A stretch of DNA of 19,674 nucleotides from Paraspadella gotoi (lineage: Eukaryota > Animalia > Chaetognatha). Of this stretch, positions 379 to 19,059 are shown one piece after another. Location: NCBI GenBank assembly GCA_051294375.1, contig JBJCIZ010001206.1, positions 1 to 19,674 on the forward strand, in the 5' to 3' direction. The notes beneath the pieces were generated by a model. The model did no database searches, had not been told where the DNA came from, and was given only the letters and a program-made list of their open reading frames with translations. How positions within the stretch are numbered: the stretch's first letter is position 1; each line of letters starts with the position of its first letter. Position numbers and translations under genes: made by a program.

Positions 379-809
379 TCCTATTTTTCTTTCCTTTGTT
401 CTTTTTCTTTTTTTCCTTTCTTTTCCTCAGTCTTACATCCTCACTTTTTGGATATTTGCGGTCTTTTTCCATTTTTTTTTATTAATATTCTTTAGTTTAA
501 TTTTCTTGTTTTCGTCAGCATCCATATGTCTTCATTCTATGTTGTTTGCACGGGTTTACTTCTTGGCACTTTTTCTTAATCTTCATTCTTTTTGATTCAT
601 TTCCCTTTTCCCCCTTTTATTGTTTACTTCTTTTTGACCTCCTGAAATATCTTGGGGCCAGTTTCCCCTTTCCTCTTTTTTTCTTGGGCTCCGCGTCGCT
701 CGCTCTCCTGCACTTTTACGATGTCCGATTCCTATAGTATAAGGTTCTTGTTCTATTCCCGGTCATAATCCTATCTGTGAGGTCTTTTACGGGGCATTTA
801 CTATCCGCT

Positions 810-1127
810 TCACTTGTATTAAAATCACTTTTCATAAAAATCACTTTTATTAGAAGATCAATTTTATTAGAATCACTTTATTGAAGATCACTTTATTAAA
901 ATCAACTTTTATTAAAAATCATTGTGTTAGAATCACTTTATTAAGATACTTTTATTACATAAATCATTTAATTAGGATCACTTTATTAAAAATCACTTTT
1001 TATTAAAATCACTTTTATTAAAATCACTTTATTTTAAGAATCACTTTATTAGAATCACTTTATTAAAATACTACCTTTTAATAAAATCACTTTTATTAAA
1101 ATCACTATTTTATTAAAATCACTTTTT
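810..1127. repeat. Minisatellite, ~14-16-bp unit TTATTAAAATCACTT(T), roughly 20 units
   Basis: Head-to-tail repeats of tattaaaatcacttt with variants such as tattagaatcacttt. No spacers. Confidence 0.9.
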
Positions 1128-1146
1128 CAATCTGGCCAATTACTCT

Positions 1147-1190
1147 CTCCAGTCTTCTGAGGCGTGGGTTCGAATCCACACCATCTGCCA
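1147..1190 (+). pseudogene. 3' half of a tRNA-Leu (anticodon-stem 3' strand, long variable arm, T arm, acceptor 3' strand)
   Basis: ctccagtcttctgaggcgtgggttcgaatccacaccatctgcca closely follows the eukaryotic tRNA-Leu(AAG/TAG) 3' half CTCCAGTCTCTTCGGAGGCGTGGGTTCGAATCCCACCGCTGCCA. B-box GGTTCGAATCC at 1167-1177. No D arm or anticodon upstream. Confidence 0.8.
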
Positions 1191-1205
1191 CCTCAAAAAT
1201 AGGTA

Positions 1206-1995
1206 TGAGTCGCGGCAATTGCGCTAGGTTCACCCCGCTTAAGCATAACCACCTTCAGTCTGGACCGGTGCTCATTGAGCTTACAGCCATCAGCTCATGT
1301 ACCACTAGGTACCGGTTCAAGTTCCAAACCTCGGACCTACCCTGTGGGAAACCGTTGAGGACGGCCGATAACCGCCTTGGGGTGCGTGGCACACCCATCA
1401 AGCCTGGTTCCAAACCCAGGACCCGGTTCCATGGCTTACTGAAGGGAGGTAGTGAAAGTACATTAGTCAAATACTTTAAGTTCAAGAACACACTTTACGC
1501 ACTAACCACCATCAGTAGAACTAAATTTTAAGAAATTAATTTTTGTTAATTTTCAGTAGGAAATTTATATGATATACTTATAAATCAAAATTGAAAATAG
1601 CTTATCTAATTACCAATATGCAATATTTGTTCTGCAAGTTAGTAGAAATATATCTAACAGTTGTGTTAAATTTCTTCTCATTAAGTTGAGTTAATCGATA
1701 AAACGAGAAGTATTAAAGTAAATTTCATTTATATAGCCTGTTCTATTATGACACTAAGAAGGAATAAAAAGGTACTCTCTAACTTTTATGACGTCCAAAC
1801 AAAAAACTGACCTTCGATTTAACATTGTAGATCTTATAGTGGCTATGCGATATGTAAATTTATGTTTTTTAACAAATGTTCTAGTAATGCTCGTCTCCAA
1901 GTTAGATTTTCTTAATTATAACTTACGAATTTTATAGCCTTACTGCTACTAAAGTTTAGTTACGGATGCTCTTCACCCACCTAGCCCTTATCACA
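1206..1995. mobile_element. 790-bp insertion with TG...CA ends, absent from copy B (solo-LTR-like or other non-autonomous element)
   Basis: Copy A reads aaaataggta[tgagt...atcaca]gtagacagag and copy B reads aaataagtaagtagacagag. The insert is flanked by GTA/GTA. It has no microsatellites, and its composition differs from the flanks. Confidence 0.7.
1243..1517 (+). ncRNA. Candidate structured RNA domain inside the insertion
   Basis: Stems found by eye: 1252-1259/1438-1445, 1261-1272/1308-1319, 1276-1281/1292-1297, 1329-1334/1355-1360, 1376-1384/1392-1402, 1403-1407/1416-1420, 1437-1459/1492-1517. G-U pairs favour the plus strand. Confidence 0.45.
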
Positions 1996-2074
1996 GTAGA
2001 CAGAGATTCGAGACGAAATCTAAGTGGATTTTATTTTTCAGAAATAGATCTTATACAAACGTGTCAATATTTGC

Positions 2075-2190
2075 GGCAGAGTGAATTCATTACAGTTGGT
2101 TCCAAATTTCTACAGCTCATCTGGATCGGAGGTCAGGTAAAATTCACGGCGGGGAAGCCAGTCGATCATTGTCGTGATTTGTCTCTGCCA
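2075..2190 (+). other. 116-nt imperfect fold-back closed by GGCAGAG/CTCTGCC-A
   Basis: ggcagagtgaattcattaca pairs with tgtcgtgatttgtctctgcc, gttggttcc with ggaagccagt, and atctgg with tcaggt. Confidence 0.45.
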
Positions 2191-2756
2191 CATGAGATGT
2201 TCATGCCCGTGTCTTGATGATTTAGTTTAGATTAGATTCCTTTGCGAATGATATTTCTATTCGCATATTTTAACTTGATGATTTTAATTTATGTATTATT
2301 ATCTTAATTTAATATTATTAATATATCCGCCGCGCTCCTTGACCTTACTTTACCTTACTCTCGCTGGCTCCACTACCTGCCTTGCCCCACACTGACCCGC
2401 CCGTCTCACCTTTGACGTTTGGCTAAAATCGCCTGACTCGTATTCGTTCGCGCCTGACTTTCGTCTGTGCCATCGGGGCGAAGAGAGTAATAGGAAGAAA
2501 AGGAGGAAAGAAAAAAAAAGGAAAAAAGGATCTTAGAAAGTAATAAAAACGAAGAAAGAAAGAAATGAAAAAAAATTATCTAGGAAGAAGAGACAAAATG
2601 AAAAAAAAGGAAAAGAGAGAATAAAGGAAAAAAAAAAGAAAGGAAAAATAATAGAAAGGAAAGAAGCCGAATGGAGGCGGAAAAGGAAAGAAAAGAGTTA
2701 TCTATGTTTTCAGGACTTTTCCTCCTTTAACTGCTTCAAGTATCGTCTTTTCAAAG

Positions 2757-3006
2757 CAGAGAGAGAGAGAAGGATAGAGAAAGAGAGAGAGAGAGATGAG
2801 AGAGAGACGAGAGAAGAGAGAGAAGAAGAGAGAGAGAAGAGAGAAGAGAGAGAGAGAGAAAGTTATTTAATGTCTTCTAGCAAAGATGTCTCACCTTTGG
2901 AAGCAAGAGAACAAAAATACACGCAGATTCAAATAACGTTTTTCTTTGTTGAAAAAAATGAGAAAGTATGTTTACACTTCCTCGGCTTTTCAATTTAATT
3001 AGTGGG

Positions 3007-3064
<58 letters not shown>

Positions 3065-3237
3065 CGAGCTGACGCGTTCGGTCGTAGTTTAATCTCGTTT
3101 TCAAGTTATATCTTTTTTTTTCTCTCTTCTTGTTGCCTGTTAACTGCGTGATAGGCTGCTACAATTCATGAGCGATAAATTGTGATGAAACAAGCGCTCT
3201 CTTAATCTCTCTCTCTCTCTCTCTCTCCTCTCTCATC

Positions 3238-3275
<38 letters not shown>

Positions 3276-3300
3276 TATCTCTCTCTCCTCCTCTTCTCTC
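2757..3300. repeat. Cluster of (GA)n and (TC)n microsatellites (~2757-2858, 3007-3062, 3207-3300)
   Basis: Direct reading. Counterparts lie at ~7415-7480, 7634-7710 and 7864-7950. Confidence 0.95.
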
Positions 3301-3824
3301 TTTCATCCTGATGTATAAGAAGGGAATTGATACAAATCACGAGTTTCTCTCGATTCAATTACAGTGAGTCTTCTTGGGAGAAAAAGTGATTATGTGAATG
3401 AAACATGAATCAACCCGTCCTGCTCGTCTGGCGAATATATTAATTCACATTTGGCGTATGAGTTATTAATTTATCATTTTGATTTTTCATGGATTTGTAC
3501 TCTTTCGCTGTCGACGTAATTCGATTGGCCTCTTTTCTTATTTTGTATGTATAAACAATTTAGAAAACACGTGACATTTTAACTTTTTAAATCTTGTTTT
3601 CTTTTGGCCATACAAGATCAGTAGTCGTTTAAAAAAACTTTTTTTGGTCTCTAAGCCTTAAAAGTTAAAAGTTAAATATTATTGTGATGAGAACCATAAA
3701 TGTGAATATATTCTAATTTTAATAATTATTCTTTTGCCGAAGAATTTCAGCTGCTTGCGATGGTCGCTCAAGAGTCTTCAATATTTTTCTTTAATCAAAT
3801 CCAAACAAACAAACATTTTATGAG

Positions 3825-3874
3825 TCTCTCTCCCTCCCTCCTCCACCTCCCCTCCTCTCTCTCTCTCTTTCTCT

Positions 3875-3951
<77 letters not shown>

Positions 3952-3977
3952 CTTGCTCTCTCTGTCATCTCTCTCTC
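3825..3977. repeat. (TC)n microsatellite
   Basis: Direct reading. Counterpart at ~8519-8670. Confidence 0.95.
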
Positions 3978-4627
3978 CTATTTGAAAGTCTTCCAGAAAA
4001 TACAGCTCATAATTTTATGAAAGTACAAGAAAAAATAAGGAACCGAGGTTTTGCAAAAATGTTTGCAGAAATTTTGCAGAATCGTCGCCAAGAAAAACTA
4101 AAAATAGATTTTTTTCTTCTCTTCTCAAAACTGAAAATCAACAGAAAAAAAATAATCAGAAAAAAAAAGTGTATGGAAAGAAAATATAGAGGGAGCACTT
4201 CCAACTCTGAGGATATATCCTCTCCCACTCTCTCTCTCTTTCTCTCTCTCTCTCTAGTTTTGCATTAAATGTCGCTTATTTATTCAAAGTCCACTTTGTC
4301 TTTCATTACCTCTTCCGCTCCTCAGTTCAAAAAACCCCGCCAGTTATTTTTGTTATTGTTGTTATCTTTCCGCTTTCGCAATCTCACGCAGCCCAAGGGG
4401 GCGGGGGGGAGATTGAGTGTGACCACAGCCTCGTTTTCGCCGGCGATGCTCGCGCCATCTTTATCTCTCCCTGAGGATTTCTCCGCCGGCGACGAACAAT
4501 GCACAACGGACCTTTTGTTTGCCTCCCATGCGTTCGTTACTCTCTCTCTGTCTCGGTCTCTCTCTCCCATCCCATTTATGCAAATGAAATCCTGATTAGA
4601 TTTTTTTCCATTTATACATAACACGTT

Positions 4628-5024: not shown

Positions 5025-5958
5025 GTAATGAAAGACAATTTTTTATTTGAAGACAAAGAGAATGAATTTTCTCTGCGGCGAAGATAGAAAGTGAAGAGAA
5101 AATAAGAGGGAATCGTTTCACTGTGAAAGATCGGGGGGGGGAGGAGTGAATGTGTTGGGGGGAGATGGTGAAATCAGAAGCGACAGTTGCGCCACCCATC
5201 GCTGTTGAAAAAAAAATCTATCGACCATTTCTCCCTACAAATCGTGAAAGGTCAGGAGAAAGTTGGTTTTATTTCTCTTTATTGTTCTGTCTTGACTCAC
5301 TCATTCTATTAATTCATACTTTTTCCGTTTTTTTATTATTTTTGTCGTCTTCTTGGTGAAACTTTTTTACTTTTTTATTTTTCTATTTCTTTTTACTTTC
5401 TATTTCGTCTTGACGGAAATTTCTTTCTTTCTTAAAAAAAAACGTTAAAAAAATAAGCGAAAAGCATAAGAAATTAGAATCGACATCTTGTCGAATTTCG
5501 ACTCTCGACTTTGAAATTAAATTCAATTTTTATTTTGCTCAGGGGAACGACGAAAGAAGCATAAAATAAAAGAGAAAAAATGAAATGAAAAAAGTTTACG
5601 AGTTTTTAGTTAAAAAAATTGAGTTTTGGTCTCAAGAAAGAAAAAAAAAGATTAAAAATTTATTGTTTTTTATTTGCCAAATCGGTTGACTGTTCGAGAC
5701 TATATTTTGTATGATATTTTTTATAATTCGTTATTATTCTATACTTTGTATAAATTTTATGAGATTCACAAAACTTTCTCTGGATAAAAACAAACAGAAT
5801 ATAAAAAGAAGAAACAAAAAAAAAAAAAAGAACGAGGCAAAAAACAAAAAAAACAAACAAAAAACAAAAACTAAAATTTTGCGAAAAAAAATGGCGACGT
5901 GAATTTTGTTTTGGTGGCGAGAATTCACGACTCACGACTCACGAATCCGACCGAAGAA

Positions 5959-6107
5959 GATTCACGTGAACGATTTCATTCTGATGCGAAAGGAAAGGAG
6001 GACCCAACCCCAAAGCAATTTCACGCAAACCGAAGATTGACTTACCCTACCTGAAACAAAGTCTCCCTTAGGGTTCCGCCTACAATCAGACTCTTTTAGA
6101 CAATGGA
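5959..6107 (-). repeat. Inverted copy of 14288-14483
   Basis: The reverse complement reads tccattgtctaaaagagt...aaccctaagg...tttcagg...gtcaatctt...cagaatgaaatcgttc(t)acgtgaatc, matching 14288-14483. The latter copy carries many extra bases. Confidence 0.85.
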
Positions 6108-6265
6108 CTTGGCCAGTTTTCCCCTTTGCCCTCTTTTTTCTTGGCTCGCTCGCTCGCCTCCCTGCATTTTTTCAACCGTCCGATTCCTATATATATTTCT
6201 TTTCTATTCCTGCCGGTCTAGTAATCCTATCTGGTGAGGTCTTCACGGGCCATTTACTATCCGGT

Positions 6266-6419
6266 TCACTTTATAAAATCACTTTATTAAAAATCACTTT
6301 TATAAAATTCACTTTTATTAAAATCAACTTTTATAAAATCACTCTATTAGAATCCTTATAATAATCAGCTTTATTAATAATCCACCTTGTTATTAAAAAT
6401 CACTTATTAAAATACACTT
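6266..6419. repeat. Minisatellite TTATTAAAATCACTT, shorter array (~10 units)
   Basis: Same unit as 810-1127. Confidence 0.85.
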
Positions 6420-6440
6420 CCAGCATCTGCCAATGTATCT

Positions 6441-6488
6441 CTCCGTCTCTTCCCTGGAGGCGTGGGTTCGAATCCCACGCCTCTGCCA
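6441..6488 (+). pseudogene. 3' half of tRNA-Leu, copy B
   Basis: ctccgtctcttccctggaggcgtgggttcgaatcccacgcctctgcca, with an intact T arm GTGGG-TTCGAAT-CCCAC and a B-box at 6465-6475. Confidence 0.8.
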
Positions 6489-6499
6489 CCTCCAAATAA

Positions 6500-6553
6500 G
6501 TAAGTAGACAGAGATTTCGAGACGTAACTCTCAAGTGGGATTTATTTTTTCAG
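6500..6553 (+). other. Candidate 54-nt spliceosomal intron
   Basis: GTAAGT donor and ttattttttcag acceptor. Copy A has a ctaag branch-like motif and the same acceptor ending at 2041. Confidence 0.4.
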
Positions 6554-7883
6554 AATAATAGATCTCTTATTCAAGACGGGTCAATATTTGCGGCAGAGTG
6601 AGATCAAATACAGGTGTTGGGTGTCCAAGTGTGTGTGAGCGTGTGATTCGGATCGGAGGTAAGGGTTAAAATCACCGCGCGGGTGGAGAACCATCGGATT
6701 CATTAGCACGGGTTGCCATTTGTCTCTAGCGCGTGGTCTTTACAATGAACGCCTAAATCCATCGTGCCCGTGTCGGTTGATCCGAATTTTAGATTTGAGA
6801 TTTGATTAGGATTCTTAGCTCGACTGATATCTCTATATTCGCATTTGATTTAATTGGAACTGATTTTATTTATTGTATTTAGTTATTTAATTTAGATATT
6901 ATTAATATACCGCCGCCTCCTTGACCTTACTTTACCCTTACCTCTCGCTGCTTCCACTGACCTGCCTTGCCCCACAACTGACCCGCCCAGTCTCACCTTT
7001 GACTGTTTGGCGCTCAGATCGCCTGACTCGTATTCGGTTCGCCGCCTGACTTTCGTCTGGTGCCACATCGGGGCCGAAGAGTTAATAGAGAAGAAAGATA
7101 TAGAGGAAGGAAAGAAGAACTAAAGTAAGAAAAAAGAAAAAAGGATCTTAAACATAATAAAAACGAAAGAAAGAACAGAAAGGAAAATGAAAAAAAATTA
7201 ATCTGCAGAAAGACGAAAATGAAAAGAAAGAAAAGAGAGAATAAAGGAAAAAAAAGAAAGGAAAAATAAAGAAAGGAAAGAAGACGAATGGAGCGGAAAA
7301 GGAAAGGAAAGAGTATCTTGTTTTCAGGACTTTTCTCCTTATAACTGCTCAAGGTACGTCTTGGCAAGCCAGAGAGGAGACGAAGGGAGAGAGAAGAGGA
7401 CGTGCCCCAAGGCGATGAGAGAGAGAGAGAGCGAGAGAAGAGAGAGAGAGAGAGGAGAGAGAAGAGAGAGGAGAGAGAGAGAAGTTTTTAATCGTTTTCT
7501 AGCAAAAGATGTCCACCTTGAAGCACAAGCAGAACCAAAAATAAACCGCAGATTCAATAACGTTTCTGTGTGTAAAAAAATGAGAAAGCTAATGTTTACA
7601 CTTCCTCGGCTTTTCAATTTAATTAGTTGGGGGGAGAGAGAAGAGAGAGAGAAGAGAGAGAGAGAGGGAGAGGAGATGAGAGAGAGAGAGGAGAAGAGAG
7701 AGGGAGGGAGAAGACGAGCCGCTTTCAGGTTCTAGTTTTAATCTCGTTCTTCAATGTTATATCTTTTTTTTCTTTCTCTTTTGTTCTGTGTACTGCCGTG
7801 TAGGCTGTACAATTCATGAGCGATAAATTGAGAAAAAGACGCCTCTTTCTCTTATCATCTCTGCTCTCTCTCGTCTCTCCTCT

Positions 7884-7932
<49 letters not shown>

Positions 7933-8567
7933 CTCCTCTTCTCTCTCCTTCTCCTGAGTATCAAGAAGGGATTATCTGAGCATACAATCACGAGCTTTCT
8001 CTCGATTCACGATTACAGTTGAGTCCTTCTTGGGAGGAAAAAAAGTGAATTATGTATGAAGAAACATGAATCACCGGTCCTGGCTTCGTCCTGGCGCGAA
8101 TATATTAATTCACATTCTGGCGCGATGAGTATTAAATTTAATCATTTTTTGATTTTCGATGGATTTTAACTTCTTTCGCTGTTCGAGCCCGTGTACTATT
8201 CGAATTGGCCCTCTTCTTATTTGTAGTGTCATAAACAATTTAGGAAAACACGTGACATATTTAACTTTTTAAATCTTGTTTTCTTTTGGTCCACTACAAG
8301 ATCAGTAGTCGTTTTAAAAAAAACTTTTTTTTCGGTGTCTCTAAGCCTTAAAAGTGTAAAAGGTAAATATTATTGTGATAGAGAACCATAAATGTGAATA
8401 TATCATTATTTAATAATCTATTCTTTTGCCGAAAGAATTTCAGTGCTTGCCGATGGTCGCTCAAGAGCTCATTCAATATTTTTCGTTTAATCAAATCCAA
8501 ACAAACAAACATTATGAGTCTCTCTCCCCTCCCTCCCCTCCCCTCCTCTCTTCTCTCTCTTTCTCTA

Positions 8568-8635
<68 letters not shown>

Positions 8636-8929
8636 CTCTCTCTCTCTCTTGCTCTCTCTGTTCTCTCTCTCCCTATTTGAAAGTCCTCCAGAAAAATAAC
8701 AGGCTCATAATTCTTATGAAAAGTACAAGAAAAGTCAGAGGAACGAGGTTTTGCAAAAATGTTTGCAGAAATTTTGCCAGAATCTGTCGCCAAGAAAAAA
8801 CTAAAAAAATAGATTTTTTCTTCGTCTTTCGTCCAAACGAACAAATCACACAGAAAAAAGAAATAATCCAGGAAAAAAAAAGTGTATGAAAGAAAACTAT
8901 AGAGGGCACTTCAAACTCTGAGGATAATA

Positions 8930-8932
8930 TCT

Positions 8933-9030
<98 letters not shown>

Positions 9031-9540
9031 TCTACTCTCTCTCTATCTATCTTCTCTCTCTTCTCTCTCTCTCTCTCTCTTTTTTTTTTTTTTTTTTTAT
9101 CGCCCAAATATTTTCTTTTCTCCATCACAAACAATGTTGGAGGCCATGAAAAAGAAAGGAAAGGGAGAGGATCTCGTTTTCCGCTTCGAGACAGAGACAG
9201 AAGAAAATAAAAGGAGAGAGAGATAGAGACAGAGAGCGTACTCTCTCCCTCTCTCGCCCACGAATTTCTTATGAAGAGAATGAAGAAAGATTAAATAAAC
9301 AGAGATCAAAGGATTTTTTCCTCCGAAGAAAATGTCACCGCGAAAAAAAGTGAGAGAAAAGGTTCGTCGCATTTTGTGAGAGGCTGGGGTTAATGCGGTT
9401 ATGGTGTTTCTATCACCATAAATGTATGAAGAAGTTTGTTGAGGTTTTTCCCGCATTTTGGTGAAAATTTTTTTGGTCTTTTGGTTGTGACGAGGAGAGC
9501 AAAGGCTGTGAGTGACTTGAAGAGGCAAGGCGTGCGGGAA

Positions 9541-9571
<31 letters not shown>

Positions 9572-9743
9572 CTCTCTCTCTCTCTTCTTCTCTCCTTTCT
9601 CTCTCTCTCTCTCTCTCCTCGCTCTCTTCCACATAAGTCCCCAACTTCAACCTCGTGATTGTCTTTGACAGGCTTTGCCTTGATTCTTTATTCGTGATTG
9701 ACCCAATTTCTGAAGAGGAGAGAGACGGATTAAGACAGAATAA

Positions 9744-9827
<84 letters not shown>

Positions 9828-11131
9828 ATTTCCTCGACTCCCTTCCTGTCTCGTCATGAATCGTCAAACCTAAAAAGAATATTTTTTCGCGGCGTCGACC
9901 TCCGATCATAAAGAGCCACGTCTCTGTCGTTCTCTCTCTCTTCTTTTTCTCCTTCTTCTTTCTCTCCTTTTCCTTCTCTTTCTTTTTATTGTCTCCTTCC
10001 ATAACTTCTTCTTTCCTCGTTCTCAACGAAAACAAAAATGAAAGAATAAAAACGATCACGATTTTGTGAGATATTTGTGATTTTTATTTTGATGTGGCAT
10101 TTTAATTTTAATTTTAGTTTAAATTAAACTTTCTCCTTGTCACTCTCAAAAAGATTCCATCACATCGTCTTCCCGTTTTCTTCCGCGTTTCTTTTCCCGT
10201 TTCCTCTCCGGAAGTGATTCTTAATTAGAAAACTTTTGGCGAAACTGCATTCACGATCTTCACAACATTCCAAAAAAATATCTCTCTGGCTGTCCACCGA
10301 ATTTTCCTTCTCAATCTTTTTTTTTCTCATTTTTTTTATTTATTTTTTAATTTCATTTTGCTTTTCTCCTCAAAAAATTCTCTCCTCCCCGCTTTTTCTT
10401 TTCCTTTTCTTTTCCTTTTCCTTCCTTTTTCCTTTCCTTTTTCGCTTCCTCTTCCCTCCCTTTTTTTCTTCTCCTCCCCCTTCCCTTTTCCTTCCCTTTC
10501 TTCCCCTTTTCTTCTCTTGCCCTCCTTAGATTCGCTTACCATCTCACATAGAAGACTTTTCCTTCCAGTCTTGCTCTTTATCTGTGTCCTTCACTACCCC
10601 CCCCCCTCCTTCCCACCCTTTCCCAAACTGGATCTTCTTCCACTCTTTATCTTAAAATCATGAAAGCGATAATGGGAGGAAAAAGTAGGAGGAGGAAGAG
10701 TAGTGAGGAGGGTAGAGGGAAGGAAGTCGAAGGAGGAGTGAGTCGTGGTGAAAGAGGGAAGGAAGATTGAAGGAAGAAGGAAAACATGTTTTGGAGGAGA
10801 GTAATGGTGTTATAAATAAAGGAGAAAACAAGAAAAAGCCGAAAGATAAGAAGATGGAATAAAACAAAAAGAAAAAAAGGGAATAGATAAGAAAAAAAAA
10901 TTTTTTTTGAAAACCAATATTTTAAAAAAGAATTAGGGTTAAAAATAATAGAAATGGATAAATGTTCACTCGAAGATAATAAAGAAAAATGAACAACGTA
11001 GAGAATATAAAAGTTATTTATAACTTACTATCATTATAATTACAAATAAAGACAAAATATAAACAAAAAAATGCTATAAAAACTCGCTTCTCTAAGGTTC
11101 CGCGTACAAACGTTTGCATTTCGGAAAAAAA
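8930..11131 (-). repeat. Left arm of a ~2.2-kb inverted repeat: (TC)n, T19, then a ~2-kb body
   Basis: Reverse complement of 14741-16890 along its length. For example, atcgcccaaatattttc at 9099 vs gaaaatatttgggccgat at 16690, and gcatttcggaaaa at 11116 vs ttttccgaaatgc at 14747. Confidence 0.95.
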
Positions 11132-11165
11132 CGACTCTTTCCACTATTGTTCAGTTGTTACTTAC

Positions 11166-11389
11166 AATGATGATTAACTTTGTACCACAAAAATTAGGCC
11201 GAACGAAGGATTGGTTAGAAACAACTCCACCCGTTTCTAATGATAAAATAGTACCATTTTGGCAACTTTTAGCCAAAAAAATTATGTCCATTTTTGTCCA
11301 TTTTTACTTACGACTTCTGATTTGAATGCCAAGGAAAGTTGAGAAAATTTTTTTACTTTGGAATCCGTTCTTTCTTATCTTCTTTACCT
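11166..11389 (-). CDS. Two candidate exons (11389-11312 and 11236-11166) joined across a 75-nt intron; product unknown
   Basis: The minus strand has gctaat..cccag, an exon, gtaagt..gctaa..attag, an exon, then gtaagt. The spliced frame is open: VKKIRKNGFQSKKIFSTFLGIQIRSQTGGVVSNQSFVRPNFCGTKLIII. Confidence 0.35.
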
Positions 11390-11785
11390 CTGGGTAAATT
11401 TATTAGCTTAAATCATTTATAGTTTGCCTATGAATTAATTTTAAAGTTAACAAGTCAAAAAGTTGGAGTTTCAGTCTTTATCATAATTTGTTAAACAAAA
11501 AATAAATCAAATTGGTTGAAATTAACAGAAAATATAGCCTATTGAATAAGCTTTTAACACCTATAAAATTATCAAAAAAACTTTTTTGGTTTTAGCCACA
11601 AATAATTTTTAAAGACGTCTTTTAATTTGTGACTTTTTGTGACTTGCATTTATTTTTGATAAAGAGAATATTTTCAACTCATTTATTAGTTTTAAAAGAT
11701 GAGGTACATACTGACCTTGATTAATTAAAAAAAACCGCGCATCCTTTTAACCAAATGGAAAGCGTCAGGACTTGTTTTTTCTCAG

Positions 11786-11830
11786 AATCGACAGATTTTG
11801 CGGAAAAATTTTCCGCAAAATCTGTCGATT
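11786..11830. repeat. Perfect palindrome, 22-bp arms and a 1-nt spacer
   Basis: aatcgacagattttgcggaaaa-a-ttttccgcaaaatctgtcgatt. Confidence 0.97.
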
Positions 11831-12631
11831 TACTAAATTGCTAGGCAACCAAAATTGAAAAAAAAATCATCGCGCTACCGTTCATTTTCTTTCTTATAAT
11901 GAATCAAAGAATTTTCATTGATTTGATTCAATCTAAATGAAGAAAATAAGTGATAAGAAAGAGGAAAGGGAGAACAAGAAGAGGAAGAAGGGGAAGATGA
12001 GAGAGAATGAGGTGAAAAAAGGAAAAAGAGAAGGCAAAGGGGATAAATAGTAGAGAGATAAAGATAAGGCGGGAAAGAGAGGGGGGAAATTTAAAGAAAA
12101 GAAGGGGAAAGAAAGGGAAGGAGAGAATAAGAGAAAAAAAAGATAAGGGAAATGGAGCGAGAAGCAGGGAAAGGTAGGGGGTAAAAAATGGAAAGTGAGG
12201 TCGTGATATGAAAGGGAGGAAAGAGGGTTAGAAAAAAATGAAAAGCTGTGAAGAAGAAAGGTAACGAGAAAGAATAACAGAGAGGATATGAGAAGGAAAA
12301 AATGGTAACAGATATTGTGGTGTCTTTTCTGAATAGTTTGCTCTAAATATAAAGATACAAAAATTATTATAGGGAATTCGATCTTTAAAAGTTTTCTGTA
12401 CCATGAAAATTCATACATACTTTTTTTAAAACTAAGGAAGTTAATGAGATTAGATTGATAAGCATCGAAAGAATCTTGTCTTACCTATTTTTTAACTCAT
12501 AGAATTTTATCTGGGACGTACTATGTCATAAGAGAGAAGATAACTATAAGCCTACCCGTTTTTTTAAATGAAAGAAAGATTCATACTAGTCAATGAGATC
12601 ATCAGAGATGAACGTAAATTAAGTTCAGAAT

Positions 12632-12656
12632 NNNNNNNNNNNNNNNNNNNNNNNNN
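12632..12656. other. Assembly gap, 25 N
   Basis: Direct reading. Confidence 1.
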
Positions 12657-14286
12657 AAAAAAAAAAAAAAAACGACTCTTTCCACTATTGTTCAGTTGTT
12701 ACTTACAATGATGATTAACTTTGTACCACAAACACCATTAGCGAGCGCGACGAAGGATTGGTTAAGAAACAACTCCACCCGTTTCTAATGATAAAATAGT
12801 ACCATTTTGGCAAATTTAGCCAAAAAAATTATGTCCATTTTTGTCCATTTTTACTTACGACTTCTGATTTGAATGCCAAGGAAAGTTGAGAAAATTTTTT
12901 TACTTTGGAAATCCGTTCTTTCTTATCTTCTTTACCTCTGGGTAAATTTATTAGCTTAAATCATTTATAGTTTGCCTATGAATTAATTTTAAAGTTAACA
13001 AGTCAAAAAGTTGGAGTTTCAGTCTTTATCATAATTTTTTAAACAAAAATAAATCAAATTGGTTGAAATTAAAGAAAAATATAGCCTATTGAATAAGCTT
13101 TTAACACCTATAAAATTATCAAAAAACTTTTTTGGTTTTAGCCACAAATAATTTTTAAAGACGTCTTTTAATTTGTGACTTTTGTGACTTGCATTTATTT
13201 TTGATATAAGAGAATATTTTTCAACTCATTTATTAGTTTTTAAAAGATGAGGTACATCTGACCTTGATTAATTAAAAAAAACCCGCATCCTTTTAACCAA
13301 ATGGGAAAGCGTCAGGACTTGTTTTTTCTCAGAATCGACAGATTTTGCGGAAAAATTTTCCGCAAAATCTGTCATGTTCTAAAATTTGCTAGTGGTTCAT
13401 ACCAAATTTGAAAATGCAAAAACAATTGATCATGCGCTACCGTTTCATTTTCTTTTCTTATAATGAATCAAAAGGAATTTTCATTGATTTGATTCAATCT
13501 AAATGAAGAAAATAAGTGATAAGAAAGAGGAAGGGAGAACAAGAGAGGAGAGGGAAGGGGAAGATGAGAGAGAATGAGGTGAAAAAAGGAAAAAGAGAAG
13601 GCAAAGGGGATAAAAGTAGAGAGATAAAGATAAGGCGCGGGAAAGAGAGGGGGAAAAATTTAAAGAAAAGAAGGGGAAAGAAAGGAAGGAAGGAATAAGA
13701 GAAGAAAAAAAAAAAGATAAGGGAAATGGGGAAGCACGGCAGCATAGAAGAACAGGGTAGGGGTGTGACGTGGGAAAAAAATGGAAAGTGAGGTCGTGAT
13801 ATGAAAGGGAGGAAAGAGGGTTAGAAAAAATGAAAAGCTGTGAAGAAGAAAGAGAAAGGTAACGAGAAAGAAGTAATAACAGAGAGGATTATGAGAGGAA
13901 AAAAAAATGGTAACAGATATTGCTGTGATGTCTTTTCTGATATGTTTGCCTCTAAATAAATAAAAGATTACAAAAATTATTATAGGGAATTCGATCTTTT
14001 AAAAGTTTCTTGTATGTACCATGAAAATTCATACATACTTTTTTTTTTTTTAACAACTAAGGAAGTTAATGAGATTAGATTGATAAGCAATCGAAAGAAA
14101 ATCGTTGTCTTACCCCGTCATTTTTTAACTCATAGTAGATTTTATTTGGGCACACGTACTATGTCATAAGAGGAAGATAATATAGGACCTACCGTTTTTT
14201 TTTCAACAATGAAAGAAAGATTCATACTATAGTCCAAATCGCTGAGCATCATCAGAGACATGAACGATAAATTTAAAGTGTTCAGA
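12657..14286 (+). repeat. Tandem duplication, copy 2 (right of the gap; insertion-rich after ~13375)
   Basis: Colinear with 11125-12630. Confidence 0.95.
13337..13373. repeat. Second copy of the palindrome (18-bp perfect arms)
   Basis: gacagattttgcggaaaa-a-ttttccgcaaaatctgtc. Confidence 0.95.
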
Positions 14287-14740
14287 TTCCATTGTCTAAA
14301 AGAGTGGCTGATGTGCTAGCGCAGGCAACCCTAAGGAGAACTTTCTTTCAGGCTATAGGGCTAAGTAGTCAATCTTTCCCGGCCCTGGTTGCGGGAGAGA
14401 AAAATTTGAACACTTTGGGTGTTGAGCGGATCCTCCTGTCCTTTCCCTTTGCCATTTCAGAATGAAATCGTTCTACGTGAATCCCGTGAGAATCTCTTTC
14501 CGGTAGACACTTCTCTTTCGGATTTTCAGTTAATGTTTTGCAGTCTGTGAGAGTCACTGAGGGAGGAAAAAGTTACTAACAGTCACAGTCCTCATAATTA
14601 CCGGCATACCGAGTGTACAACCTGCGTTCTGTCCATTTTTTTCAGCAAAATTTTGTATTATGTTGGAAGAGGTTTTTTGTTATTTGCCCAGCTTAGTCAC
14701 GTCTCTGTGTGATAATGCTTCTTTTTTGTGTTTCTTTCTC

Positions 14741-16004
14741 TTTTTTTTTTCCGAAATGCAACGTTTGTACGCGGAACCTTAGAGAAGCGAGTTTTATAGC
14801 ATTTTTTTGTTTATATTTTGTCTTTATTTGTAATTATAATGATAGTAAGTTATAAATAACTTTTATATTCTCTACGTTGTTCATTTTCTTTATTATTCTT
14901 CGAGTGAACATTTATCCATTTCTATTATTTTTAACCCTAATTCTTTTTTTAAAATATTGGTTTTCAAAAAATTTTTTTTTTTCTTATCTATTCCCTTTTT
15001 TTCTCTTTTGTTTTATTCCATCTTCTTATCTTCGGCTTTTCTTGTTTTCTCCTTTATTAAACACCATTACTCTCCTCCAAAACAATGTTTTCCTTTCTTC
15101 CTTCAATCTTCCTTCCCTCTTTCACCACGACCCTCCTCCTCCTACTCCTCCTCCTCCTCCTCCTCCTCCTCCTACTTTTTCCTCCATTTTCTGCTTTCAT
15201 GATTTTAAGAAGATAACAGAGGTGGAAGAAGAAGTGAAGGAAAAAGGAAAGAAATGGGAAGGAAAGAGGGGAGGAAGGAAAGAGAATGGAGGAAGGGGAA
15301 AGAGAAAAGAAAAGGGGAAGAAATGGGAAGGAAAGAGGGAAGGGAGGAAAGAAAAAGGGGGAGGGGCAAAGAGAAGCGAAAAAGGAAAGAAAAAGGAAGG
15401 AAAAGGAAAAGAAAGGAAAAGAAAAGGGAGAGAGAATTTTTTGAGGAAGAAAAGCAAAATGAAATAAAAAATAAATAAAAAAAATTGAGAAAAAAAAAGA
15501 ATTGAGAAGGAAAATTCGGTGGACAGCCAGAGAGATATTTTTGTGAATGTTGTGAATGATCGTGAATGCAGTTTCGCCAAAAGTTTTCTAATTAAGAATC
15601 ACTTCCGGAAAACGGGAAGAAAACGGGAAGAAAACGGGAAGACGATGTGATGGAATCTTTTTGAGAGTGACAAGGAGAAAGTTTAATTTAAAGCTAAAAT
15701 TAAAATTAAAATGTCACAATCATAAATAAAAATCACAAATATCTCACAAAATCGTGATCGTTTTTATTCTTTCATTTTTTGTTTTCGTGAGAACGAGGAA
15801 AGAAGAAGTTATGGAAGGAGACAATAAAAAGAAAGAGAAGGAAAAGGAGAGAAAGAAGAAGAAGAGAAAAAGAAGAGAGAGAGACGACAGAGACGTGGCT
15901 CGTTTATGATCGGAGGTCGACGCCGCGAAAAATATTCTTTTTAGGTTTGACGATTTCATGATCGAGACAGGAAGGGAGTCGAGGAAATGCTCTCTCTCTC
16001 TCTC

Positions 16005-17246: not shown

Positions 17247-17313
17247 ACTGCTTCGTCAAATTTCTCTCTATTTCAGGTCTACTGCTTCGTCAAATTTCTC
17301 TCTATTTCAGGTC
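17247..17313 (+). repeat. Perfect 33-bp tandem duplication (period 34) containing a pyrimidine tract and CAGGT
   Basis: actgcttcgtcaaatttctctctatttcaggtc at 17247-17279 and 17281-17313. Confidence 0.95.
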
Positions 17314-17758: not shown

Positions 17759-18233
17759 TATTGTTACGTAATAATGATCAATATATTACGAGGAAATTTC
17801 AGCTTCTCTACCTTTTCCCCACTGCTCTTTTGTTCCCTTACTAACGCAAGGATTTTCCGTTTCTCTGGCGATCACAGCGACACCTCTAGTTTCGATTGTG
17901 TATTAAAGTATATACTTAAGTACAAGTTTCCGAGGCAGTGTGTGGCATGTTCTGATTGGTTGCCGCGGTTTCGATAGAATTCAGCCATGATTTCTATCGA
18001 TGTGCAACTCTTCAGACTTCACTTAGTCTCACACTGCGTTTTGCTACTTTTTTATAAGTTTCTCTACAATTCGCATATAGATATTCTCGGAAACACGTTT
18101 TTTAATAATAAGTTTTTGTGATCGCTGGATTGGGGGACTTTCTTTGTGATAGAGGCAACATTTTACAATTCTGGCTTCAGAAACAAGTAAGAGAATCTCT
18201 TTAAAATTTATATATATATTTACTGAGTGTGTA

Positions 18234-18362
18234 TTAAATGTTTTGTTCCCTTCGTCCAGGATTTCTAACTTTAGCTTCAGAGAAGATCCTGGATTTCGCA
18301 TCGACTTGATCGTCCGCCATGTCGTCGACGATCAACTTTGCCGAGACTTTGTCGTCAGCCAT
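18234..18362 (-). CDS. Possible 42-aa small ORF or exon with an internal repeat
   Basis: MADDKVSAKLIVDDMADDQVDAKSRIFSEAKVRNPGRREQNI*, in a GC-richer island, with caagATGg start context. Confidence 0.25.
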   Translation of the reverse strand: MADDKVSAKLIVDDMADDQVDAKSRIFSEAKVRNPGRREQNI

Positions 18363-19059
18363 CTTGAGCTAGTGGACCGGTGCCATCGTCTCTTTTGCGC
18401 CATCTTCCTCGAATTCCTCTACTTATGATAGCGCAGAATTAGTTCAGGAAAGTTAGCGAATCAACGACAGCCACCTCTACGACTTCAGTTCGTTTACAAT
18501 TATCATCATCATCATCATCATCATCTCCATCATCATCTCCATCATCATCATCATCATCATCATCTCCTAAATTCACTTCAACCAAACAAAATATTTCTTT
18601 TTTTTATTTTTGTTTACAAAATGAGTCACACAGATTTTTCTTCTTTTTTTTCTTTTCCTCATCATCCACACATAATCGACGAATTGTTTTTTGTTTTGTT
18701 TTCTTAATCTTTACTTTTTGCTTTTTTCATTTGGCTTCCCCATAGCCGAACATCTCTCTCACTCCTCTCATCTCGCATATCGGGTGGACGTAGCTGCTCT
18801 GATCATGTGCTGTTTCGGCACGGACTCTCATCATCTCTCTCCTCTCATCATCCCGCATCTCTCCGATCTCTCTCCTTCTCTCCCCTTCAATACGGATCTC
18901 AGGCGAAACTCTTTATTTTTTCCCTATTTTTCTTTTTTCCCCTTTTTTTCCTTTTTTCTTATGTAGCTTCAACTTTCTTTCTCTTGATTGAATTCTTGAA
19001 GCAAATCTCTTTGCCTTCGTTTTTGGTGAAACTTGATTTTCCCTCTTTTATTCTCTTCT

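Follow-up and report, generated by a model that had tools for sequence, protein, structure and literature searches.

Target-site duplications (TSDs) of LTR retrotransposons are given as 3-6 bp long in PMC10045372, and most Gypsy LTRs carry the end pattern TGTNR described in PMC2836005. According to PMC5006619, the dictyostelid Skipper-2 is an LTR element that lies 7-136 bp downstream of tRNA genes and also occurs as solo LTRs. Here we set beside these systems an insert of about 790 bp found in a window of 19,674 nucleotides, the whole stretch of DNA that was analysed. It is probably a genuine insertion and probably one of an ordinary kind. We consider it best read as a young solo LTR, an end-repeat left behind by a retrotransposon, and put the probability of this reading at roughly 0.45.

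Self-comparison of the window reveals two related segments, copy A and copy B, and about 790 bp (1206-1994 or 1206-1995) that are present in A and missing from B. Copy A matches B at 656-1198 (B 6111-6496) and again at 1995-4258 (B 6503-8972), and B lacks the stretch in between. The flanks that the insert separates in A are joined in B, and after the insert the flank picks up within a few bases of the break. The first-pass annotation had proposed just such a filled and empty site, and the comparison of both copies confirms it; the TG start (1206), the CA end (1994-1995), the GTA on both sides and the words GCTAGGT and ACCTAGC that it described are likewise all present. The insert, to which no orientation is assigned, runs from 1206 to 1994 if there is no TSD and from 1206 to 1995 as a TG..CA element; 1206-1993 is also CA-ended. 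Candidate TSDs are the left GTA at 1203-1205 (AGTA or AAGTA if A has read errors) and the right GTA at 1996-1998, both given on the plus strand. Copy B (6111-8972, plus strand) is about 80% identical to A 656-4258 minus the insert, with mostly small indel differences, and its empty site (6493-6506, plus strand) carries AGTA twice in tandem. At that site B also reads GTAAGT (6499-6504), a splice-donor-like word spanning the insertion point, and A reads GT..AG across 1203-1996. Within the 19,674-nt window there is no second copy of the insert. We regard the stretch as a likely non-coding mobile insertion, seen with both its filled and its empty site.

How much can be read from this pair depends on how faithfully it was sequenced. 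Roughly every fifth column of the alignment differs between copies A and B; most of these differences are small indels, as in raw long reads. Counted over 1568 bases of A in seven mostly microsatellite-free segments, B has 213 extra bases (13.6%), A has 64 (4.1%) and 37 bases are substituted (2.4%); transitions make up 14 of the 37 substitutions, near the one-third expected of random error. True divergence leaves mostly substitutions, with transitions in excess. Raw PacBio sequence is credited in PMC3504050 with 9% insertions, 4% deletions and 2% mismatches, and the A/B differences, being close to this profile, are likely sequencing noise. Because the indel-rich pattern resembles raw PacBio error and is unlike true divergence, we infer that A and B are in truth near-identical, representing two haplotypes or else duplicates of very recent origin. 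They likely stem from different molecules, since the copy number of a 15-bp minisatellite (plus strand; 810-1126 in A, 6266-6412 in B) is 20.5 in A but 9.9 in B.

The rest of the window, which is repeat-rich and eukaryote-like, is similarly redundant. Besides A and B (656-4258 and 6111-8972, direct, about 80% identical), self-comparison yields an inverted pair (8930-11131 and 16875-14744, 91%) and a further direct pair (11125-12620 and 12666-14273, 89%) lying across a 25-N gap (12632-12656). The inverted pair, 2.2 kb long, has almost no substitutions and may be either a long inverted repeat of recent origin or a product of misassembly. The 25-N gap may be the mark of the gap filler of PMC3504050, whose default gap size is 25 N. 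Overfilled gaps are described in the same source (PMC3504050), and the pair around this gap, with nearly indel-only differences, has that look. Both copies of the duplicated segment contain a 45-bp near-perfect palindrome (11786-11830 and 13333-13373; 98% self-complementary) that could be a MITE-like or hairpin remnant. Elsewhere, a 7-bp minisatellite of 16.7 copies occupies 193-313, a unit of about 33 bp stands twice head to tail at about 17248-17313 (by eye), and 18153-18428 is more GC-balanced and looks coding, both strands having open frames of 91-95 aa, with no Pfam match. Unpolished long-read segments, visible as indel-rich duplicates of 80-90% identity, call for caution: they cannot carry TSD or footprint arguments.

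Because the two copies differ so often, the junction cannot be read to the single base. The base-exact reading offered earlier was not borne out, its three versions being only 1-2 edits apart amid pairwise noise of about 20%. Over both A junctions and the empty site, an insert without TSD needs 3 edits, TG..CA ends with a 3-bp GTA duplication need 4, free ends with AGTA also 4, and TG..CA ends with AGTA, or with AAGTA and an end at 1993, need 5; at the local error rate about 3-5 differences would be expected over this stretch anyway. Junction likelihoods were obtained from an error model summed over all hidden sequences, in four noisy settings and one accurate one, with a no-TSD insert with arbitrary ends as the baseline; only the summed error of A and B is measured, and its split between them is an assumption.

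Under the noisy settings, TG..CA ends without TSD score 10-15 against the baseline. Adding a 3-bp TSD raises this to about 60-125 (61-125), or to 11-46 if TGTNR is required at both ends; a 4-bp TSD scores 2.4-12.6, a 5-bp TSD 1.0-5.3, and a 6-bp TSD is disfavoured (0.06-0.8). Two further models, a T|T target (A|A on the plus strand) with free ends and GT..AG ends, reach 6.5 and 8-10. Footprint models, in which B keeps both target copies, outscore every plain insertion on junction likelihood (TG..CA with 3 bp, 247-579; TG..CA with 4 bp, 70-464; free ends with AGTA, 25-72). If the sequence is instead taken as accurate, and the copies as old duplicates, plain insertions with a 3-5-bp TSD score at most 0.15 and footprints 35-107; the ordinary reading thus requires that the noise be real. 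Simulated 4-5-bp TSDs of the ordinary kind were fully readable in A in 5528-15588 of 20,000 trials per setting (28-78%).

It had been argued that the junction fits no class, on the premise that LTR TSDs measure 4-6 bp. The premise is not upheld by PMC10045372, which gives 3-6 bp, and TG..CA ends with a 3-5-bp TSD are compatible with the junction once noise is modelled. The argument fails because, so modelled, TG..CA ends with a 3-bp TSD are 60-125 times as likely as the no-TSD baseline and lie within the LTR range. As it stands, the junction is compatible with an ordinary class and provides no argument for a new one. The suggested AGTA-AGTA excision footprint does attain the highest junction likelihood, but we keep it as a minority reading only.

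The body of the insert is compositionally distinct. As had been described, a GC-rich 5' third (GC 0.56 over 1206-1460) is followed by an AT-rich remainder (GC 0.28 over 1461-1994). TRF lists no array within the insert, and neither direct nor inverted long terminal repeats were found. The ratio of observed to expected TpA is 1.05, above that of all 85 overlapping 790-bp windows downstream (maximum 0.95, median 0.57), and simple sequence is as scarce in only 2 of these 85. Since both properties are unlike the neighbouring DNA, insertion into A is favoured over deletion from B. Neither end carries a poly-A or repeat tail.

The GC-rich part (plus strand) contains a 17-bp repeat at 1321 and 1407 with 2 mismatches, which was reached in 0 of 100 shuffles, and five of six RGTTCM words, the sixth being at 1479; all six are on the plus strand and their number was reached in 0 of 2000 shuffles. 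Both motifs were chosen post hoc. The AT-rich part, with no strand assigned, has TATAAA at 1579 and AATAAA at 1763, both on the plus strand and compatible with an LTR layout, but such motifs would be expected by chance at this composition. Near the left end, GCTAGGT (1223-1229; inverted partner at 1979-1985) overlaps TTCACCC (from 1229; direct partner at 1972-1978), together spanning 1223-1235 on the plus strand; the right-end partners, TTCACCC and then ACCTAGC, occupy 1972-1985 on the same strand. The inverted pair is therefore present as described but marginal, its P value rising from 0.02 through 0.04 to 0.125 as the end window widens from 30 through 40 to 60 nt (2000 shuffles per window, motif picked post hoc); the inverted and direct pairs jointly give P of 0.0005-0.018, again post hoc. 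These repeats and motifs would suit an LTR U3 region and transposase sites equally.

No transposase, integrase or reverse transcriptase was recognised in the insert, in agreement with the first-pass annotation: none of five frames tested, two of them in the insert, has a Pfam match. A 108-aa frame from 1205, which has no Pfam match, no protein candidate among lengths 59-189 and no usable Atlas match (recognition 1354), is treated as spurious, and read errors could hide a short coding fragment. An exact 20-mer of the insert had no match in viral contigs. With blastn, all hits were at chance level: among 50,697 phage records there was one (29 bp, E 0.8), and among 72,556 plasmid records ten (cover at most 6%, E at least 0.06). 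Translated-frame scans, covering 1205-1528 and 1758-1934 only, confirmed none of their candidates, which numbered 421 and 317 in metagenomes, 22 and 24 in viral contigs, and 320 in prokaryote genomes. Since these collections hold little eukaryotic DNA and barely cover its non-coding part, the absence of relatives speaks against a contaminant of prokaryotic or phage origin and no more. Dfam, Repbase or nt may already contain the family; the collections compared here were of phage, plasmid, viral, metagenome, prokaryote and protein sequences.

The proposal that the element is RNA-structured found no support in folding. The whole insert (z -1.26) and its first 295 nt (z -0.81) fold no better than shuffles, and in sliding windows 1 of 34 window-strands falls below -2 (40 shuffles each). 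The single low window lies at 1606-1725 on the minus strand, with z -3.3. Over 1100-2100, Rfam gives seven weak matches, none at gathering score. No hammerhead with an exact core occurs; an arrangement with one core mismatch at about 1435-1480 was equalled in 4 of 200 shuffles and shows, by eye, stems I and III and no clear helix II; Rfam gives no hammerhead match. Compared with the motif as given in PMC4209133, it is set aside.

Upstream of the insert lies the 3' half of a tRNA-Leu-like sequence (1146-1190, plus strand; also in B at about 6443-6488), with a variable arm, a T arm with B box and the acceptor 3' strand. As had been noted, 15 bases separate its discriminator-like A1190 from 1206. 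What had been called a tRNA-Leu remnant is indeed tRNA-Leu-like and so placed, but it is a 3' half only: it aligns only to the last 40-45 nt of tRNA-Leu genes, ARAGORN calls no tRNA gene in the window, and no 5' half was found there. A 19-mer common to A and B recurs in ten viral contigs, where ARAGORN calls Leu three times, Ser twice, Cys once, a tRNA of undetermined type twice and none twice. The half-tRNA belongs to the host flank. As a primer binding site of the element it was rejected, lying 12-15 nt away, reading CCT rather than CCA in both copies and being present in the empty copy. The insert's nearness to it is likely chance, or at most a weak B-box preference. Targeting of tRNA flanks would rest on one site beside a half-tRNA, and one site cannot show targeting.

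The solo-LTR reading draws on the TG..CA termini, the lack of any protein match, the short repeat on both sides and a composition unlike that of the neighbours. An integrase would have inserted a full LTR element here, cutting the target with a 3-5-bp stagger (GTA, AGTA or AAGTA), and recombination between its two LTRs would then have removed the coding interior. Copy B would derive from a molecule that never carried the element, its few extra junction bases being read errors, and a noisy long-read assembly likely kept both versions, whether haplotypes or very recent duplicates, next to each other, leaving the empty site visible. On the minus strand, the right end of the insert reads TGTGA and fits TGTNR; the left end, TGAGT, does not. 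A single unit of 790 bp is within the length range of LTRs. Against this reading, neither a second copy nor a full-length partner is seen within the window. A TSD costs 4-5 edits against 3 without one, and although the likelihoods favour 3 bp under noise, they fall to 0.15 or less if the sequence is accurate; the no-TSD reading needs the fewest edits and footprint models score higher. Further, few LTR elements make 3-bp TSDs, and if the site is young enough to be polymorphic, there has been little time for a solo LTR to form. The probabilities of all readings combine the junction likelihoods with how common each class is.

One unlikely alternative is that the insert is a non-autonomous cut-and-paste DNA element without long terminal inverted repeats (TIRs) and with a 3-4-bp TSD, B being an excision allele that retains both target copies; the RGTTCM motifs and the 7-bp end pairs would then be transposase binding sites. 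It has the top junction likelihoods (25-72 with free ends and AGTA, 70-579 with TG..CA and 3 or 4 bp), explains AGTA-AGTA in B with no further edit, and can account for end motifs and internal repeats that exceed shuffles. However, two events are needed, the short tandem TAAG-TAAG-TAG in B can arise by chance or read error, and the motifs were picked post hoc. TIR-less cut-and-paste elements are a rare type, which lowers the prior. Such elements with a DDE transposase and short subterminal inverted repeats do exist, as Dada in PMC3706591 attests, but the 40-270-bp TIRs of the Ginger type are absent. We think it very unlikely that the insert is, more specifically, a TIR-less TG..CA non-autonomous element homing 15 bp behind tRNA B boxes, with a 3-4-bp duplication of which both copies stay behind on excision; such an element would be recognised by its repeated RGTTCM motifs and paired 7-bp end motifs.

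Similarly unlikely is a copy-in element that makes no TSD, either a Helentron/HINE-like rolling-circle element (minus strand, T|T) or a Crypton-like tyrosine-recombinase element. Its edit count of 3 is the lowest, an A|A target (T|T on the minus strand) with free ends scores 6.5, and the minus strand shows a subterminal inverted pair and then, some 6 nt before the 3' end, a near-palindrome. Insertion at T|T is described for HLE2 (PMC11417382), and animal Cryptons without terminal repeats in PMC3212892. Yet the inverted pair has 7 bp (8 of 9) where HINEs have 12-15 bp (PMC4067079), and there is one T on each side where PMC4067079 gives at least two, extra terminal T's scoring 0.01-0.2. The near-palindrome (1212-1224) does not exceed shuffles (P 0.39-0.63 for end windows of 30-40 nt), and the TG..CA ends would be a coincidence.

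An assembly artefact, in which gap filling or consensus building introduced an unrelated piece, whether a host repeat or foreign DNA, into A or removed the stretch from B, is quite unlikely. The window is admittedly a patchwork of redundant segments joined at microsatellites and poly-A, with a duplicate across the 25-N gap, and the insert's composition is unlike its neighbours. Against this, the flank continues within a few bases of the break, even without a TSD the TG..CA ends have a 10-15-fold advantage over arbitrary ones, and no source appeared among phages, plasmids, viral contigs, metagenomes or prokaryote genomes. We hold it highly improbable that the insert is old single-copy host DNA from which B carries a simple deletion: no second copy turned up wherever searched and no-TSD is the minimum-edit reading, but the composition lies outside the neighbouring range, TG..CA would be chance, and a microhomology deletion would be expected to leave one GTA, not two. 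Most improbable of all is an intron-like GT..AG insert at 1203-1996, whether it came from an intron-generating element or is an intron that B has lost: A does read AG|GTATGAG...CACAG| at 4 edits and a likelihood of 8-10, but around the site, which is flanked by a minisatellite, a half-tRNA and simple repeats, no gene or frame is recognisable, and the insert has no TIRs.

Overall, the proposal of a non-coding mobile insertion likely stands; that of an undescribed class is not supported, given the noisy junction, the corrected TSD premise, folding no better than that of shuffled sequence and the single tRNA site. The 790-bp insert likely gives no ground for a new element class, its edges lying in what is likely sequencing noise. 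If it is a solo LTR, it represents one unannotated repeat family in one eukaryote, of use for a repeat library and as a polymorphic marker. Were the novel case true, DNA transposons would gain a TIR-less type that is directed to tRNA flanks and leaves an excision footprint, a DNA-transposon counterpart of the retroelements with that target, seen in both filled and excised states.

Comparison with known element types places the locus further. Several types are rejected: SINEs and LINEs by the lack of a poly-A or repeat tail, Helitron1 by ends that do not fit TC..CTRR at A|T, and Penelope-like elements and retrozymes by the lack of a hammerhead with intact core and helix II. Cryptons have terminal direct repeats of 4-6 bp, with none in the animal families, according to PMC3212892; in the insert AGTA is possible with one edit. 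The TRIMs Helenus, Ajax and Cassandra, as described in PMC10886601, are likewise short and non-coding, and the insert shares GGTTC words in its GC-rich part, but it has no paired LTRs, polypurine tract (PPT), full A box or B box. Its self-alignment shows no long direct repeat and there is no purine run of at least 10, which rejects Helenus and Ajax; nor do Pol III boxes hold up, with no full A box, no GTTCRANNC and no Rfam tRNA or 5S match in the insert. The longest LTR reported for hymenopteran Helenus in PMC10886601 is 323 bp, and a search for six words in that paper's supplement file gave no match.

HINE/DINE-1 elements (non-autonomous Helentrons, HLE2) resemble the insert in a minus-strand T|T target without TSD, a subterminal inverted pair and a near-palindrome at one end (PMC4067079, PMC11417382). 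Membership fails on subterminal repeat length and terminal T's: the longest exact pair is 7 bp against 12-15 bp, a single T stands against at least two, and by eye there is no likeness to the 15 subTIRs of Table S2 (all PMC4067079). Dada, in the account of PMC3706591, shares the absence of TIRs, subterminal inverted repeats of 7-9 bp and an association with tRNA-Leu. Its insertions lie within the RNA gene and have a 6-7-bp TSD (PMC3706591), whereas the insert lies 15 bp outside the tRNA-like sequence and 6-7 bp is disfavoured, and membership fails on both counts. Ginger1 and Ginger2/TDD agree in TG..CA ends and a possible 4-5-bp TSD, but their 40-270-bp TIRs, given with TGTNR ends in PMC2836005, are absent from the insert, which excludes it.

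A solo LTR of the Gypsy, BEL or Copia type remains the best reading. The insert differs from one in a left end that departs from TGTNR and in having no family, second copy or internal partner found; it agrees in its TG..CA ends, the absence of a protein match and a short flanking repeat, which as a duplication of 3-5 bp would fall within the 3-6 bp of PMC10045372. Skipper-2 differs in its LTRs of 208-315 bp (PMC5006619), and the insert adjoins a half-tRNA at one site. Its position 15 bp 3' of a tRNA-like sequence nevertheless falls within the 7-136 bp reported for Skipper-2 in PMC5006619, and because that element already sits downstream of tRNA genes, a preference for tRNA flanks would not be new for an LTR element.
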